Shown here: one piece after another, positions 3,250 to 26,009 of the stretch
Position numbering within the stretch: position 1 is the stretch's first letter
Layout of the letters: each line of letters starts with the position of its first letter
Virus record (IMG/VR): IMGVR_UViG_3300020452_000320
Span: 1,641-65,640 of that record
From: a virus
Taxonomy: Duplodnaviria > Caudoviricetes
DNA length: 64,000 bases
Reading direction: 5' to 3' (one strand)
Notes under the pieces: model-generated
Database searches by the model: none
What the model was told of the DNA's origin: nothing
What the model saw: only the letters and a program-made list of their open reading frames with translations
Made by a program: the position numbers and the translations under genes

Positions 3250-4402
3250 ATATTGTATTATGGGTTTTGTTTACTTTAACAAATGTTGTACACTTTGTCA
3301 AGTGTTTTATTTGTTTTGCACCAACATAAGTACAAGTAGATCTCAATCCACCAAGTATATGTTGTATGGTATCTTTAATAGGGCCTTTGTAAGGTATCAT
3401 AACTTCTTTACCTTCACTTGCACGATAATCTTTTAACCCACCAAAATGTTTATCATTTGCAATCGTAGAACTCATTCCATAAAAATGAATCATTTGTCTT
3501 TTTTCAGTTTTTCTATGTGCTTCTTGACCTTCAACAAATAAAGGTGAACTCTTTTCGCCATTACCTTTTACTTGACTAGTAATATGTTCTGTAGAAATTA
3601 TTTCTCCACCACCTTCATCATGTCCAGCTAACATACCCCCTAACATAACAAAATCTGCACCACCACCAAATGCTTTTGCAATATCACCACTTGTAGTACA
3701 ACCACCATCTGCAATTATCTGACCACCTAACCCATGAGCGGCATCTGCACATTCTATAATTGCAGATAGTTGTGGATAACCAATTCCAGTATGAACTCTT
3801 GTTGTACAAACAGAACCAGGCCCTATACCAACCTTTATTATATCTGCACCATTTAATACTAGTTCTTGTGTCATATCGGCAGTTACAACATTACCAGCAA
3901 TAATGACTAGTTCTGGATGATTAACTCTTATATTATATATAAAGTTACTAAACATTTCTGTGTAACCATTTGCAACATCAACACACAAATATTTTATTTT
4001 ACCATCAGTAAGTTCATAAACATCTCTGAACTTTAGATATTCTTCTTCAGTTGCACCAATACACATTGCAACGTGTTCGGTTCTCATTGGATATATATCA
4101 AATGCATCTTGTCCTAATACATCTGCATCAAAATATTCAACTAATTCATTTGTATTATATGTTTTAACCAAACAACTAAACATTCTTTCTGAAGCTAAAA
4201 TATCTGCAATCTCCATAGTACCTACACCATCCATATTAGATGCAATGATAGGTATTCCATAAAAACGTCTATCATGTCCTTTAGCATTTCTAAAGTCCAT
4301 AGATCTGAATAAATTTACTTCTTTTCTTGATTTAAGAGTTGATCTTTTTGGTCTGATTAATACATCAGAAAAATCTAGTTTGGTATCTTCTTCTATAATC
4401 AT
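3227..4402 (-). CDS. guaC: GMP reductase
   Basis: KLDFSDVLIRPKRSTL N-terminus, DVANGY, KVGIGPGSVCTTR, ADGGC, YRASEGK, ILGGLRSTCTYVGA. Confidence 0.93.
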   Translation of the reverse strand: MIIEEDTKLDFSDVLIRPKRSTLKSRKEVNLFRSMDFRNAKGHDRRFYGIPIIASNMDGVGTMEIADILASERMFSCLVKTYNTNELVEYFDADVLGQDAFDIYPMRTEHVAMCIGATEEEYLKFRDVYELTDGKIKYLCVDVANGYTEMFSNFIYNIRVNHPELVIIAGNVVTADMTQELVLNGADIIKVGIGPGSVCTTRVHTGIGYPQLSAIIECADAAHGLGGQIIADGGCTTSGDIAKAFGGGADFVMLGGMLAGHDEGGGEIISTEHITSQVKGNGEKSSPLFVEGQEAHRKTEKRQMIHFYGMSSTIANDKHFGGLKDYRASEGKEVMIPYKGPIKDTIQHILGGLRSTCTYVGAKQIKHLTKCTTFVKVNKTHNTIFGDSNGR

Positions 4403-4404
4403 TT

Positions 4405-5811
4405 TTACCTCATATTGTATATGTAATATTCTTTTTTATTAATTACAGTAGTATATATACCATCTATAGTTCTAAGATAATTTCTATATCTGCTAAACTC
4501 TATTTGTTTACCCCAACCAAGCCAATCTCTTATTTGTTTAGTGGAAACTTGTTTGTTCTTTTTTACATAATTTACTATGTCATTTTTTCTTTCACCTTCT
4601 TTGATAATTTTACAATTATCAAGTTGTTCTTGTAACATATTATTAAATGGTTTAATTCTATTATTCCAACTATGAACTTTTGAACAATGGTCTAAAGCAA
4701 ATTGTGATTGTTTATTTCTAAAATCATTGTCATCTAACATTTTATTTAACAAATCTAACGATTGTGAAAAATCAGAAAAACCTATTTCCATTTTGTCACC
4801 AAATAGTTCACTTGTTTCTTTTCCTATTTCAAATACATAAGGAACACCATTACATAAACCATCTTGTGATGACATAGCCCAACGAGTTCCAGCATGAAAA
4901 CCAACTCTACATTCAGAAAGTTTTTTCATATATTCATCTCTACTATCTGGGCCTTCAGTATCAAAATATGATTTATAATCTTCACCCAATTCGTGATTTA
5001 AATGTTTAAATGCATTTGCAGTTAACATAGAACAAAAAACTTTAAAGTCTTGTCTTTGAGATCTTAATTTTTTAATTACCTTTAAAAAAGGTTTCCAACC
5101 TCTATAATCATTTGGTCTATGATTAAATACTATTATTTTATCAGTATTAGTGTTTACTGTTTTAGATATTCTATCATCTTCTATACCAAGATATAAAGGT
5201 ATCATAATATTTTTGAGTTTGTCAATTGTTTTTTGAGAGTAATGTTCTTCTGCTTCTTCTAATATTGCATCAATTTGTGTTTGTGTATTTAATCCACATT
5301 TTTTTACTTGTAACATTCCAGTAATATTATTATGATACATTGAAGTAGTAAGGCCAGGATTAAATTCTTTGGATTCAATCCAGTGAGAATAACAAACTAT
5401 AGGAATATCTGTTCCATATAAATTAACTATATGGTTTCTAATATTTGATGCTTGTTCTGGTAGATGTGTCCATATTATATCTACTTCTGTTTTTCTAGTA
5501 TCTAAAAATTGATTCCATGTAAAAACATCATAGTGACAACGCATAGTATTTGGAAAACTTGGTATCTTTATAATATGTTGTTGTGTATTTTCAAAATCTA
5601 ATCTTTTTGTATAACTAGTTATTGGAATATGAAAAAATAAATCATCTCTTATTTTATTTAAAGATTTAATTACATTTTCCATAACCAATACATAAGAATC
5701 TTTATCTAAATTAGAAGCACACGTTACATTTGGTGCAACTAATATTTGATATATAGATTTACTCACTTTTGATAAATCAACATCATCATCTAAAAATTGT
5801 TGTAAACTCAA
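4405..5811 (-). CDS. GT-B (GT4-like) glycosyltransferase with a possible C-terminal HTH
   Basis: IVFNHRP...RGWKPFLKVIKKL, SRDEYMKKL, WAMSSQDGLCNGVP donor-binding-like motif, terminal SWNNRI; TTG start. Confidence 0.7.
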   Translation of the reverse strand: MSLQQFLDDDVDLSKVSKSIYQILVAPNVTCASNLDKDSYVLVMENVIKSLNKIRDDLFFHIPITSYTKRLDFENTQQHIIKIPSFPNTMRCHYDVFTWNQFLDTRKTEVDIIWTHLPEQASNIRNHIVNLYGTDIPIVCYSHWIESKEFNPGLTTSMYHNNITGMLQVKKCGLNTQTQIDAILEEAEEHYSQKTIDKLKNIMIPLYLGIEDDRISKTVNTNTDKIIVFNHRPNDYRGWKPFLKVIKKLRSQRQDFKVFCSMLTANAFKHLNHELGEDYKSYFDTEGPDSRDEYMKKLSECRVGFHAGTRWAMSSQDGLCNGVPYVFEIGKETSELFGDKMEIGFSDFSQSLDLLNKMLDDNDFRNKQSQFALDHCSKVHSWNNRIKPFNNMLQEQLDNCKIIKEGERKNDIVNYVKKNKQVSTKQIRDWLGWGKQIEFSRYRNYLRTIDGIYTTVINKKEYYIYNMR

Positions 5812-23070: not shown

Positions 23071-23078
23071 TATTTATA
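23071..23078 (-). promoter_or_regulatory. T4 late promoter
   Basis: TATAAATA. Confidence 0.7.
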
Positions 23079-23676
23079 ATACTTCAAACTCGTACAAATC
23101 AAATTGAAACTGAACATCAGCAGTTATTCCTTCTCCAGTTGCATCTTGTGTATTATATGTTACACCAGATAATGATGATGGATAAAGACCTCTAAAATTA
23201 ACTCTAATCTTTGGATTGTTTTTATTGGACAGTATATGCATTGTTGCATCACTTGTCAATACTGATGGATTTAAAACTGGTGCATTTCTTACATTAGAAG
23301 TTTGCTTAGGAATTACTGGTAATGCACCAGGCTTTGTTTGTATTTCGTTTCTTAAAGCACTATCAAATTGTTCGTTGTCTTTGGGAAATCCTATACCAGT
23401 TATCCAATCATGCAATTCACGATAATTTGCTAAATCTTCTTGGACTATAAAAGTTACATTAAGTGTTTCATAAATGAGTGTATCTCCCATAAACGGCACA
23501 CCTTTGAATCTAGTATTTAATATCGCATCTCCAGACATACTAATGCCTGGAACATTTGCAGATGTTATCGTATACTCAACATTAGGTAATTTTAGAATAT
23601 CAAACCTAAACTGTGTTGGGTGTGTATAATCTAAAGTACTAGGTTGTCTGTTTAAAGAGTTAAAATTAACTGCCAT
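23074..23676 (-). CDS. gp3: Tail completion/tube terminator protein (T4 gp3-like)
   Basis: PTQFRFDILKLPNVEY, VQEDLANYRELHDWITGIG, SDATMHILSNKNNP; AAGGAG before the ATG at 23676. Confidence 0.85.
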   Translation of the reverse strand: MAVNFNSLNRQPSTLDYTHPTQFRFDILKLPNVEYTITSANVPGISMSGDAILNTRFKGVPFMGDTLIYETLNVTFIVQEDLANYRELHDWITGIGFPKDNEQFDSALRNEIQTKPGALPVIPKQTSNVRNAPVLNPSVLTSDATMHILSNKNNPKIRVNFRGLYPSSLSGVTYNTQDATGEGITADVQFQFDLYEFEVL

Positions 23677-23694
23677 AATGATCTCCTTCACAAG

Positions 23695-23702
23695 TATTTA
23701 TA
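23695..23702 (-). promoter_or_regulatory. T4 late promoter for gp3
   Basis: TATAAATA. Confidence 0.75.
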
Positions 23703-23714
23703 ACGACTTTGTGT

Positions 23715-23803
23715 TGGCTTTGAGGGAAGGGCTCGAACCTTCACGCAAAAATATTTGCACACAATAAACAGTTGTGCGTGTCTACCAATTCCACCACCTC
23801 AAA
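23715..23803 (-). tRNA. Atypical tRNA with anticodon GTT (Asn) and a long variable arm
   Basis: TTTGAGG/CCTCAAA acceptor stem, GTG-GAATTGGTAGA-CAC D arm, CACAA-CTGTTTA-TTGTG anticodon arm, GCAAA-TATT-TTTGC variable stem, GAAGG-TTCGAGC-CCTTC T arm, G73 and encoded CCA. Confidence 0.9.
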
Positions 23804-23807
23804 CTAT

Positions 23808-24632
23808 TTAAGCAGCTAACTTAACATTTATTCTGTCCAGTGCAGAAATTATTCTTGTCATACCAATTCCACCGCCAACTCTTGGAATAAAATCATATTT
23901 CAAAAATTCATTCAACTCTTTTTGTACTCTATCTTTTCCAAATAGTTTGTATAACAATTCTGCATACTCACCATCTGATATTGTTTCAAATGTATTTCTC
24001 ATTTGTTCTTTGTCTGTACTTCTTTCAGCAGAACCTATTGTTTCCATACCATTTAAAATTACGTCAATCTTTTTACTGGTAATACCATCCAAATCTTCGT
24101 TTCTTGACATATTCCAAAATGGTGAAGTAAACTCTGGAAAGTCTGTAATCATACCCCAATCAATAATTTCTTCGTGTTCATTTTCCAATTCACTTACATT
24201 AAATTGGTCACTCCATTGATCATAAGTTTGTATTTCTAATTCTGGAAACCCCATATGTTTACATAATTCTATTTCCATATTTTTAAGATCATTGATATCG
24301 CCAGGCATTTCAAATTCAAACATTGGAAATATTGTTTCATGTCTGCCAGGAATTGCATTTGGTTCTTGTCTATAGCTAGTGGAAACACAAAAAAACCCCT
24401 TACTAGAGGGGCGTGTTAATAGTTCATGTTCTAACCACATTTGTCCAGTTTGTGGCAGGGGCCATATATTCCCCATGTAATTATATGTTGCGACATTTTC
24501 TGGATCTTCGCAAGCCGCTAATATTGATAGTCGATTTTGTGTATGTACTTCTTCAAAACCTTTGGATAAAAAAAATGACCTCAAAAGGCCAACTGCGTGT
24601 GTAAATTTCTTAGGTGATATAAGTTGTGTCAT
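23808..24632 (-). CDS. Class IIb aminoacyl-tRNA synthetase-like protein, catalytic domain only (AsnRS/AspRS-like)
   Basis: Motif 1 LRSFFLSKGFEEVHT, LPQTGQMWLE, motif 2 SYRQE...RH...FPMFEFE, ETIGSAERS, motif 3 PRVGGGIGMTRI; 274 aa, no N-terminal OB-fold. Confidence 0.85.
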   Translation of the reverse strand: MTQLISPKKFTHAVGLLRSFFLSKGFEEVHTQNRLSILAACEDPENVATYNYMGNIWPLPQTGQMWLEHELLTRPSSKGFFCVSTSYRQEPNAIPGRHETIFPMFEFEMPGDINDLKNMEIELCKHMGFPELEIQTYDQWSDQFNVSELENEHEEIIDWGMITDFPEFTSPFWNMSRNEDLDGITSKKIDVILNGMETIGSAERSTDKEQMRNTFETISDGEYAELLYKLFGKDRVQKELNEFLKYDFIPRVGGGIGMTRIISALDRINVKLAA

Positions 24633-24649: not shown

Positions 24650-24674
24650 AAAAAAAGGGGGATAAAAATCCCCC
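24650..24674 (-). terminator. Intrinsic terminator after gp23
   Basis: GGGGGAT-TTTT-ATCCCCC followed by T7. Confidence 0.8.
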
Positions 24675-24707
24675 TAAAGTTATTATAGTATTTTTTACTA
24701 CATGAGA

Positions 24708-26009
24708 TTACATTAAGTTTGTTACCTGTACTCTTCTGTAGTATGTGTTTGCGTTTGCAGTAAGAGCACCACCACCAGCAGTTGCACCTTCAGCGAATGG
24801 GTTTGCTGTCATTCCATATCTGGTTTTGAAACCGATTTTTGGTTGAAATGATTGCTCACCTACTGCACGAACCATTTGTAATGGTACATATGGGCAGTAA
24901 AAGATACCAGCATCAAATGGTGATGCACCCTTATATCCAGATACAAAGTACTGTTTAGCAGAACCAGAATTTGCAGAATATGGATCAATGTAAACTTTAT
25001 GTCTACCATTGAGAACACCAGCAAATGTATTTCCAGTATCGTCTACAGTTAGGTTATTATTAAGAGCAGGAGTATAGTCTAATACACCAGCCATTTGAAG
25101 TGCAGAAGCAACGTCAGCAGAACAGATAATCATGTTACCTTTTCCTCTACGTGTTTCTTGTGCAATATGATTTGCTTCTCTTTCAAGTTGGAACATAAGT
25201 CCTTTGAACTTCTCAACTGACCAACGACCATTTGAGTCAACGTCCATATCAAATATTCCAGCATTTGCAGTTGTACCAGCAGCTGCACCAGCTTTAGCAG
25301 TTTTATATACTGTTCTTACAACTTCTCTATTGATTTCTGAAAGAATTTCAGAAGAAAGAATATTTGACAATTCTGTTTCTGCATCAAGACCATGAATTGC
25401 TTTTAAGTCTTGTGCAAGTTCCATTGAATATTCTGCTTTTAGTGCTCTTGATCTTGCAGTAACACTATGCTTTTCAATTGAGAATGCCATCTCTGAAAAA
25501 TTAGAAGATCCATCACCTAATTCTTCAGCAGCTGCAGTTGTCATAGCAACACCAGATACATATGTTCCTGGCGAACTATCGTTAAGAACAGCAGGGTTAG
25601 TACCTTGCATTTGAGTTGCACCACCTGAGAAGTCATTATCTGCTTCGTTATAGAATGCTTCTGTACCAGTTTGATTGGTGAAACGTGATCTCATTGCAAA
25701 AATAAGACCAGTTGGCCCTGTCATTGGTTGAACACCAGCAATATCATAAGCGATAAGATTTGGCATTGATCTTCGTACTAATGAAATTAGTATTGGATCA
25801 TAACCTTGAACATTCCCACTAGATGGGGCATATCCAGAGTTAGTAGGTGCGGCTTCTGATAAAAATTTATTATCTTCTTGAATAGCCTTTTCTTGATTTT
25901 CTAGAATAAGTGAGGTAACAGCCCTACGATAAGCATCATCAATCTTTGGAAGATTTTTGTGCTCAAGAACTGGTTGCCACTTTTCCTGTAGTTGTTCTGT
26001 ATTGAACAT
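24708..26009 (-). CDS. gp23: Major capsid protein (T4 gp23)
   Basis: EKWQPVLEH, GVQPMTGPTGLIFAMRS, RALKAEYSMELAQDLKAIHGLDAE, QPKIGFKTRYG. Confidence 0.98.
   Translation of the reverse strand: MFNTEQLQEKWQPVLEHKNLPKIDDAYRRAVTSLILENQEKAIQEDNKFLSEAAPTNSGYAPSSGNVQGYDPILISLVRRSMPNLIAYDIAGVQPMTGPTGLIFAMRSRFTNQTGTEAFYNEADNDFSGGATQMQGTNPAVLNDSSPGTYVSGVAMTTAAAEELGDGSSNFSEMAFSIEKHSVTARSRALKAEYSMELAQDLKAIHGLDAETELSNILSSEILSEINREVVRTVYKTAKAGAAAGTTANAGIFDMDVDSNGRWSVEKFKGLMFQLEREANHIAQETRRGKGNMIICSADVASALQMAGVLDYTPALNNNLTVDDTGNTFAGVLNGRHKVYIDPYSANSGSAKQYFVSGYKGASPFDAGIFYCPYVPLQMVRAVGEQSFQPKIGFKTRYGMTANPFAEGATAGGGALTANANTYYRRVQVTNLM

Follow-up and report, generated by a model that had tools for sequence, protein, structure and literature searches.

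In bacteria, the elongator tRNA-Asn is a class I molecule with a G/QUU anticodon, N6-threonylcarbamoyladenosine at position 37 (t6A37), and a variable loop of 4-5 nt. Position 37 is almost universally a purine, and long variable arms are normally limited to the tRNAs for Leu, Ser, Tyr and Sec. Here we describe a tRNA that breaks these last two rules at once. It is encoded at 23715..23803 on the minus strand of a 64,000-nt stretch of DNA (the window; positions 1,641 to 65,640 of the IMG/VR record IMGVR_UViG_3300020452_000320) from a marine T4-like phage, and it combines the identity set of tRNA-Asn with a tRNA-Leu-type scaffold, a long variable arm, and a uridine at position 37. The gene is subject to clear purifying selection, very common in the ocean, and located directly behind the gene for a small enzyme that resembles asparaginyl-tRNA synthetase (AsnRS). 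This chimeric RNA is probably a private partner of the adjacent enzyme and not an ordinary decoding tRNA.

The resemblance to bacterial tRNA-Asn resides in the identity elements. In a review of such elements, bacterial Asn identity is described as consisting of the anticodon and G73 and as transplantable into another tRNA body, the amidation of Asp-tRNA-Asn by GatCAB as specified by U1-A72 and blocked by G1-C72 and U20a, and t6A37 in yeast tRNA-Asn as preventing aspartylation (PMC9976931). The same review states that E. coli LeuRS needs A73, and it lists G73 as an antideterminant for LeuRS and TyrRS (PMC9976931). GUU, G73 and U1:A72, the set for AsnRS or a non-discriminating AspRS and for GatCAB, all occur in the phage tRNA. 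They are likewise the determinants of the indirect pathway, in which a non-discriminating AspRS and GatCAB (the transamidosome) make the amino acid on tRNA-Asn; that pathway uses a normal decoding tRNA-Asn, whereas here a separate tRNA with a non-canonical loop sits beside an AsnRS-like enzyme. The chimera also differs from bacterial tRNA-Asn in its long arm, its tRNA-Leu-type D arm, U (rarely C) at position 37, C33 in some copies, and its location behind an enzyme gene. With bacterial tRNA-Leu it shares the 3-bp D stem, G13.A22, A15:U48, the placement of G18G19 and the long variable arm, but it has G73 in place of the essential A73, together with U1:A72 and an Asn anticodon.

Partial parallels exist for the enzyme as well. 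The archaeal AsnRS2/AS-AR and bacterial AsnA are tRNA-independent asparagine synthetases derived from class IIb synthetases, and like the phage enzyme they consist of a class IIb core alone, without an anticodon-binding domain; to our knowledge, they have neither a dedicated tRNA nor an association with pyrimidine genes. GluQRS/YadB, EpmA/PoxA, HisZ and the amino acid:carrier-protein ligases are also truncated cores put to non-canonical use, and we know of none that has its own dedicated, structurally deviant tRNA gene. In PylRS-tRNAPyl, ProRSx-tRNAProX of Streptomyces and the allo-tRNAs, an odd tRNA is coupled to, or dependent on, a special charging enzyme, and body and anticodon belong to different identity classes. 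Those tRNAs decode. In the phage chimera, by comparison, the identity matches the anticodon (Asn) on a Leu-type body, position 37 lacks its purine, and the partner belongs to an enzyme family with links to pyrimidine genes.

An asparagine identity set on a leucine-type scaffold

The sole tRNA that ARAGORN reports in the window is the 89-nt tRNA-Asn(gtt) at 23715..23803 (-). The Rfam tRNA model RF00005 matches it at 23718..23803 with 46 bits against a gathering score of 29 (E 6e-9) in a 301-nt search, and also in the whole record; a whole-window Rfam search at the gathering threshold gave no matches, which is ascribed to an effect of the fast filter. On the minus strand, the acceptor stem reads UUUGAGG/CCUCAAA, which provides U1:A72, and is followed by G73 and an encoded CCA; U8 and G9 are present. 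The D stem comprises three base pairs (GUG/CAC) flanked by a G13.A22 mismatch, and the D loop, AAUUGGUAG, has an A after U20, such that U20a is absent in our own numbering. The anticodon stem (CACAA/UUGUG) carries the loop C32 U33 G34 U35 U36 U37 A38 (23765..23771, minus strand), with the anticodon at 23769..23767 and U37 at 23766. The variable region spans 17 nt (U-GCAAA-UAUU-UUUGC-GU) and includes a 5-bp stem, and the T arm, GAAGG-UUCGAGC-CCUUC, is normal.

The molecule is a cloverleaf with stems of 7, 3-4, 5 and 5 bp, and all four helices are backed by covariation. Features of tRNA-Asn include GUU and G73, found in the window copy and in all 52 of the distinct relatives discussed below, as well as U1:A72 and the lack of U20a; a class I body and an A37 available for t6A are missing, given the 17-nt variable region and U37, and t6A37 consequently cannot form. 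Of the U33 and purine 37 expected in the 7-nt loop of an elongator, the window copy has U33 but U37. The A15:U48, G18G19, A20a and long variable arm of tRNA-Leu are all in place, except that A73 gives way to G73 here and in 52/52 relatives, and the tRNA-Ser combination of G1-C72, G2-C71 and a long arm of defined orientation is not found. Thus, the chimera retains exactly the Asn determinants, has lost that for Leu, and is without the Ser acceptor pairs and the capacity for t6A37; it carries everything that a host AsnRS, or a non-discriminating AspRS together with GatCAB, is known to read. An earlier note on this DNA, made from the letters of the window, had described intact stems and a list of Asn-like and Leu-like features, all of which are present on the minus-strand reading.

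Several comparisons point to tRNA-Leu as the origin of the scaffold. Positions 4-28 of the tRNA are 100% identical to a Salmonella tRNA-Leu gene; in a blastn comparison with phage records, this 25-nt stretch is all that matches, in two records of which one is annotated there as tRNA-Leu. A covariance model of the family (R1) scores its members, including the element at 23715..23803, at 91.6 bits and its best outside hits (in two huge phages and three cellular genomes) at 48-63 bits, and every one of these top outside hits that was checked with ARAGORN is a tRNA-Leu.

Folded as a single sequence, the window tRNA does not adopt the cloverleaf as its minimum free energy structure, and its z-score is only -0.87, with 32 of 200 shuffled sequences folding equally well. 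The case beyond chance therefore rests on the comparison of relatives.

Conserved and variable positions in the tRNA family

Relatives were located in 86 enzyme-carrying sources by a parser keyed to the T arm, the 7-bp acceptor stem and an anticodon arm of 5 bp and 7 nt, and 52 distinct sequences were aligned (A5). Among the 20 stem pairs, 17 have changed on both sides (258 cells), and the covariation score of 0.689 compares with 0.198 in shuffles (0/500 as high) and with at most 0.152 when the partners are slid. Stem cells are paired in 99.9% of cases, a figure that is partly built in because the parser accepted only fully paired acceptor and T stems; that requirement touches neither the two-sided changes nor the D stem.

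Against this turnover of the stems, U1:A72, G73, U8 and G9 are unchanged in 52/52 sequences, the A14, A15, G18, G19 and U48 (partner of A15) columns are invariant, and the T loop reads TTCGA in 51 copies and TTCAA in one. The anticodon is GUU in all 52; although GUU was among the parser's demands, it was lacking in none of the elements picked out by their arms, and every element located by its acceptor stem and T arm has GUU in a 7-nt loop on a 5-bp stem. Purifying selection on the tRNA gene is clear. It had been proposed in the earlier note that random drift of the anticodon loop among relatives would mark a pseudo-tRNA; the relatives instead show an unchanged GUU and compensated stems, and the reading of the gene as an undecayed chimera of a Leu-type scaffold and an Asn identity set is upheld by sequence and covariation alike.

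A very improbable alternative is that the element is not a working tRNA at all, but a processing or stability element at the 3′ end of the messenger RNA, a recombination hotspot of the cassette, or a slowly decaying pseudo-tRNA. The element is always found 3′ to the enzyme gene, and the cassette differs in location between genomes; both would suit such a role, as would the co-occurrence of tRNA genes with non-syntenic regions described by Sullivan et al. (2010). A processing element, however, would have no need for an unchanged GUU, G73, U1:A72, A15:U48, G18G19 and T loop while the stems turn over, and decay is excluded by the paired stem cells, with the reservation about the parser given above.

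Other positions are far less constrained. The 2:71 pair is C:G in 28 sequences, G:C in 17 and U:A in seven; position 37 is U in 46, A in five and C in one; position 33 is U in 47 and C in five; and positions 32/38 are C/A in 42, U/C in seven and C/C in three. The variable region ranges from 6 to 44 nt, one copy being class-I-like. Among 86 other distinct tRNAs from the same loci, called by ARAGORN and used as a control, position 37 is a purine in 86/86 and position 33 is U in 85/86, and both U33 and A37 are found in the one canonical tRNA-Asn of these loci (L170, 74 nt).

On a tree of the enzyme (63 phage rows and 6 cellular outgroups, quick IQ-TREE), U37 is ancestral and occurs in all four major phage clades. 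Position 37 has undergone at least five changes (four to A, one to C), position 33 at least four, and the length class of the variable arm at least 13. By comparison, the encoded CCA changes once: a 20-row clade with the Prochlorococcus phages lacks it, which looks like an adaptation to the tRNA maturation style of the host. The conserved positions are those read by charging and amidating proteins, whereas relaxation affects those that serve mostly the ribosome. In this respect, the chimera shows which tRNA parts persist when selection acts on identity and perhaps not on decoding.

The variable arms also display some regularities. In many of the long ones, a 7-bp stem carries a common loop motif around CUGCAAUAUAU (A5 columns 46-95), the arm of the cyanophage clade consists of a 5-bp stem and a UGGC loop, and arm length often switches between close relatives.

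The variation at 2:71 and in the arm bears on the Ser-for-Asn mistranslation suggested in the earlier note, and on a wider reading of deliberate mistranslation in which host SerRS (or LeuRS) charges the Leu-type body such that Ser or Leu is placed at Asn codons. The review of identity elements provides some grounds for this, in that serine identity rests mainly on the variable arm and the change of A73 to G in human tRNA-Leu is enough for serine acceptance (PMC9976931), and the window copy has both a long variable arm and G73. The same review, however, states that most bacterial tRNA-Ser keep G1-C72 and G2-C71 and that C2-G71 of tRNA-Leu blocks SerRS, C2-G71 being listed as an antideterminant for SerRS as G73 is for LeuRS (PMC9976931). 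The invariant U1:A72 and variable 2:71 pair depart from this pattern, the arm varies over 6-44 nt with many changes in length class, and the AsnRS-like partner is left unexplained. Mistranslation is accordingly the least probable of the readings considered here.

The anticodon loop raises another possibility from the earlier note, namely counter-defense. Phage tRNAs can evade anticodon nucleases through loop changes, and a replacement or decoy tRNA-Asn with an altered loop (U37, sometimes C33) and an odd body could escape nucleases that cut GUN anticodons. The loop does depart from the host type exactly at the positions flanking the anticodon. Nevertheless, a replacement tRNA must decode well, and U37 argues otherwise; no defense or anti-defense gene is seen beside the cassette in the annotated Prochlorococcus phages; and both the obligate AsnRS-like partner and the pyrimidine associations of that enzyme find no explanation. 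We consider this reading improbable.

The adjacent enzyme and its cellular relatives

Immediately upstream of the tRNA, at 23808..24632 (-), is the gene for a 274-aa class IIb synthetase core of the AsnRS type, with its stop codon 4 nt before the tRNA. Across the 86 sources, the tRNA element follows the enzyme stop codon in 77 loci, at 4-11 nt in 73 and at 132-161 nt in four, which bears out the tie to the neighboring enzyme suggested earlier. In one further locus (L012) the element lies 306 nt downstream, in two others (L077, L086) its first 48-55 nt are visible and the contig then breaks off, and in two more (L018, L060) the contig ends before an element could show. By tblastn, the enzyme occurs under the annotation “tRNA ligase” in the Prochlorococcus phages P-SSM7, P-SSM2 and P-SSM5 (72-74% identity), in each of which a long tRNA-Asn lies directly 3′ of its gene, and in three huge uncultured phage records (45-48% identity). 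The cassette occupies different genome positions in different phages. It is also widespread: 597 of 598 matched stretches in IMG/VR encode a relative of the enzyme (80 loci were kept), the enzyme forms at least 8000 protein clusters at 90% identity, and a 50%-identity library contains 667 enzyme clusters at E <= 1e-3; matches in a protein atlas came from the same viral family only.

The chimera is the only tRNA that Rfam detects in P-SSM2 (252 kb) and in two other phage genomes estimated to be 95% and 100% complete (G091 and G092), and likewise in a fourth that is 59% complete (G093); P-SSM7 has three more. No canonical tRNA-Asn was found by Rfam in these five genomes. The chimera is not part of a codon-supply tRNA set.

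Automatic annotation of this tRNA family is unreliable. Long-armed copies in nine loci (L014, L015, L017, L033, L039, L058, L062, L083 and L084) are missed by ARAGORN or miscalled as tRNA-Ile(aat), Glu(ctc), Arg(acg), Asp(atc) or Lys(ttt) of 98-101 nt, all of which share the same GUU loop. In P-SSM2 (L004, NC_006883.2), the annotated tRNA-Asn PSSM2_199 is placed at locus 5325..5410, inside a coding sequence, whereas ARAGORN and Rfam put the tRNA at locus 3313..3400 (record 162083-162168), directly after the “tRNA ligase”; the displacement of about 2 kb looks like a coordinate offset. A search of the main text of articles found no description of this tRNA or of the function of the enzyme, and in the accessible portion of Sullivan et al. 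(2010) the gene is listed only as “tRNA ligase” (T4-GC 194), among sporadic host-like genes. The labels “tRNA-Asn” and “tRNA ligase” mislead codon-usage studies of cyanophage tRNAs.

The only domain that Pfam recognizes in the enzyme is PF00152 (4.3e-15), which covers profile positions 27-292 of 308; no anticodon-binding domain (N-terminal OB-fold) is detected. Scores with the NCBIfam equivalogs for AspRS, AsnRS and asparagine synthetase A are weak (16-28 bits, where the cut-offs lie at 343-443), TIGR00457 (AsnRS) reaching 17.2 bits against 342.6. Membership in the asparagine synthetase A family was considered and rejected (NF005055, 16.2 bits against 389). A 34-member family profile compared with solved structures ranks AsnRS 2xti first (9e-13), followed by AspRS, and Foldseek with the AlphaFold (AF2) model (pLDDT 94.8) places AsnRS 1x54 and AspRS 1eov at the top, with E values of about 1e-16 to 1e-17.

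The catalytic residues are intact. In a 14-member alignment, R88, E90, R97, H98 and F102 of class II motif 2 and R251, G253, G257 and R260 of motif 3 are invariant, and the stretch Q61-T-G-Q64-M-x-L67-E68 aligns with QSSQLYLE of Brugia AsnRS, at a place where AspRS presumably has a lysine. Hence, the enzyme looks fully able to activate an Asn-like or Asp-like amino acid and unable to read an anticodon; without an anticodon-binding domain, it could read the acceptor end only. C41 (about 24510..24512), within the motif LSILAACEDP, is conserved at 95% or more among phage and cellular members alike. It adjoins a glutamate aligned with the class IIb EGG motif, and the position of C41 itself is occupied by a valine in Brugia AsnRS. 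The cysteine might have a catalytic part specific to this family.

The reading that we favor, with a probability of about one half, is that the tRNA is an acceptor of Asn identity that serves the adjacent enzyme in an acceptor or carrier role, with decoding secondary. The RNA would be a working tRNA-shaped molecule in which the Asn identity and the 3′ end are what matter, and which functionally belongs to the adjacent enzyme, each of the two forming one half of a mobile cassette. With tRNA-Leu as the source of its scaffold, from which A15:U48, G18G19 and the 3-bp D stem are kept, the RNA would present G34 U35 U36 and G73 to AsnRS or a non-discriminating AspRS and U1:A72 to GatCAB, while G73 would shut out LeuRS and TyrRS. 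U33 and a purine at position 37 are not maintained, and ribosomal decoding would therefore be at most secondary. As to who charges the tRNA, with what, and to what use, we infer that the 3′ end would be loaded with Asn, or with Asp that is then amidated to Asn, either by the adjacent enzyme (through the acceptor end only) or by host enzymes, and that the loaded end would then serve the adjacent enzyme.

Further information on the enzyme comes from its relatives in cells. A genome scan with a 14-sequence alignment (A3) gave 409 stretches. Ten loci at 60-74% identity look like phage contigs in metagenome-assembled genome (MAG) bins, and seven of these ten have the tRNA. Another 70 loci, at 54-64% identity, are cellular and come from Patescibacteria, Aureispira, Saprospiraceae, Chitinophagales, Weeksellaceae, Dependentiae, Rickettsiales and others. 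Comparison of 63 phage with 69 cellular enzymes reveals 95 positions at which both groups share the same residue at 95% conservation or more and only one group-specific position, which suggests that the chemistry is the same in both.

The cellular relatives are connected with pyrimidine synthesis in several ways. Two metagenomic proteins are fusions: P0126 (661 aa), 57% identical to the window enzyme, joins a dihydroorotate dehydrogenase (PyrD) to the enzyme core, and P0155 (588 aa) joins the core to an OMP decarboxylase (PyrF). Among 50 cellular loci with enough flank for two open reading frames (ORFs) on each side to be compared, PyrD lies upstream of the enzyme in four Bacteroidota loci, and a PyrE-PyrF fusion is nearby in two, or in three if a shorter 208-aa cluster member in L121 is counted. 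Eight Patescibacteria loci (L101, L110, L116, L128, L133, L134, L136 and L150) have a gene of the dihydrouridine synthase (Dus) family (PF01207) just upstream on the same strand; two genomes with this arrangement (G001 and G003) have no DHO_dh match. The neighbors in other cellular loci are lineage-specific housekeeping genes.

The distribution of PyrB is complementary to that of the enzyme. PyrB is above cut-off in 0 of 12 enzyme-bearing genomes and present in all 14 control genomes, and in a single order 69 of 78 genomes without the enzyme exceed the PyrB cut-off versus 0 of 3 that bear it, for which our own arithmetic gives a chance of C(12,3)/C(81,3) = 0.003. Other pathway members are less informative: CarB is above cut-off in two of five genomes, without consistent loss, and PyrC (TIGR00857) is above cut-off in none of five Bacteroidota, yet four of them have matches of 204-256 bits, just short of it. 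In five module-bearing phage genomes, the phosphoribosyltransferase family PF00156 is never above cut-off and gives three weak hits of 19-21 bits; this search provides no support for a pyrE link in the phages.

Given this tie between the enzyme family and cellular pyrimidine synthesis, a reaction linked to pyrimidines may draw on the aminoacyl-tRNA or produce it; if the tRNA feeds that synthesis, this would represent a new tRNA-dependent metabolism and a new auxiliary metabolic function of phages. A specific version of this idea, which we raise tentatively and regard as unlikely, is that the tRNA acts as a metabolic carrier instead of decoding, and that the AsnRS-like enzyme uses tRNA-bound or tRNA-derived Asp or Asn for an early pyrimidine precursor. 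The tRNA would be loaded by a host non-discriminating AspRS or AsnRS, with GatCAB, or by the phage enzyme itself; one speculative reaction would lead from asparagine and CO2 to dihydroorotate, bypassing carbamoyl-phosphate synthase and aspartate carbamoyltransferase, and the substrate might be shared with the Dus-family flavoenzymes encoded beside the enzyme in Patescibacteria. If this is correct, abundant ocean phages would carry a route into nucleotide synthesis that depends on a tRNA. The broader proposal of the earlier note that the tRNA acts outside the ribosome fits both the relaxation of U33 and purine 37 and the link between enzyme and pyrimidine genes, the patterns from which we infer it.

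An alternative that deserves more weight, doubtful as it is, is a private translational pair, in which a minimal AsnRS reads only U1:A72 and G73 and charges the tRNA with Asn, and the tRNA decodes AAU/AAC for an AT-rich phage independently of the host supply of Asn-tRNA. This would be a naturally compact synthetase/tRNA pair. The constancy of GUU in 52 copies within a normal 7-nt loop on a 5-bp stem, the conserved T loop and elbow nucleotides, the complete class II catalytic motifs of an enzyme closest to AsnRS, and the single change in CCA status, which looks like adaptation to host maturation, would all be accommodated, and two genomes (G001 and G003) have the enzyme but no AsnRS above cut-off. 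On the other hand, a full-length AsnRS coexists with the enzyme in two others (G032 and G006), and this coexistence, like the pyrimidine associations and the complementarity to PyrB, marks the enzyme as more than a spare AsnRS. A pyrimidine occupies position 37 in 47/52 copies, and a C position 33 in 5/52, as opposed to 0/86 and 1/86 in the other tRNAs. A translational pair also does not readily account for the fusion and adjacency of enzyme relatives to pyrimidine genes and their complementarity to PyrB, for the shared conserved residues (with their single group-specific exception) of phage enzymes and those of cells that lack the special tRNA, and for the chimera being the sole tRNA of a 252-kb phage.

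A number of observations weigh against the favored assignment of the tRNA as an acceptor for the adjacent enzyme. The invariant GUU, the regular 7-nt loop on its 5-bp stem and the ordinary 32/38 positions are also expected of a decoding tRNA, and A37 has arisen at least four times, such that U37 would be preferred but not required. A variable arm of 6-44 nt is too labile to be a fixed handle for an enzyme. By both the parser and the family model, no element is present in two T4-like loci (L051 and L081) or in two huge-phage loci, and none occurs within +-6 kb of the enzyme in the 70 cellular loci; the enzyme can therefore exist without a dedicated tRNA. In one sample, a single 168-nt RNA-library contig from a relative (X4 and X7) covers both the tRNA and the 3′ end of the enzyme gene, but RNA-library contigs come from relatives 90-99% alike and cannot show transcription, ends or processing, and the sampled words make up small shares of all RNA runs. 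With respect to pyrimidines, PyrD is found in only one of five small enzyme-bearing genomes, the cellular genomes are MAGs whose apparent absences may reflect incompleteness, and the link is a genomic one.

Genomic setting of the cassette

The source record, 65.6 kb in length and estimated to be 31% complete, has the Methylophilales phage Melnitz as its nearest named relative (73.5% identity over 73% of a 6-kb query), and the Pelagibacter phages Mosig and HTVC008M are also near. Both Melnitz and Mosig have a gp3-like tail gene immediately behind that of the major capsid protein. In the window, two extra genes separate the corresponding genes, namely the 825-nt ORF of the enzyme and the tRNA, which together therefore constitute an inserted cassette. 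The upstream boundary, supported by synteny with both phages, is the gp23-like major capsid protein gene at 24708..26009 (-), and between this gene and the enzyme gene a sequence scan reveals a terminator-like hairpin followed by a T run (24656..24675, minus strand).

Downstream, the boundary is the gp3-like tail gene at 23074..23691 (-), identified from the ORF list, its translation and synteny. It probably starts with the ATG at 23676; its product has no Pfam match, and the annotation of its relatives varies between tail completion and tail tube protein. Twelve nucleotides after the tRNA and ahead of the ribosome-binding site of this gene is a box resembling a T4-type late promoter, TATAAATA (23695..23702, minus strand), which we take to be the T4 late-promoter motif. 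Such boxes are not enriched across the window (11 found versus 12.25 expected), and the position of this one near the tRNA is suggestive only.

Several related phage contigs (L017, 2014..2351; L042, 1097..1478; L060, 2511..2905; L065, 993..1375; L066, 992..1374) carry tmRNA genes at distances of 0.1-1.6 kb from that of the enzyme, with tag peptides that end in AA. Within the window, nearly all long ORFs between 15 and 33 kb are on the minus strand, as are 9 of the 11 TATAAATA boxes, a bias that fits one long late-gene block of a T4-like phage.

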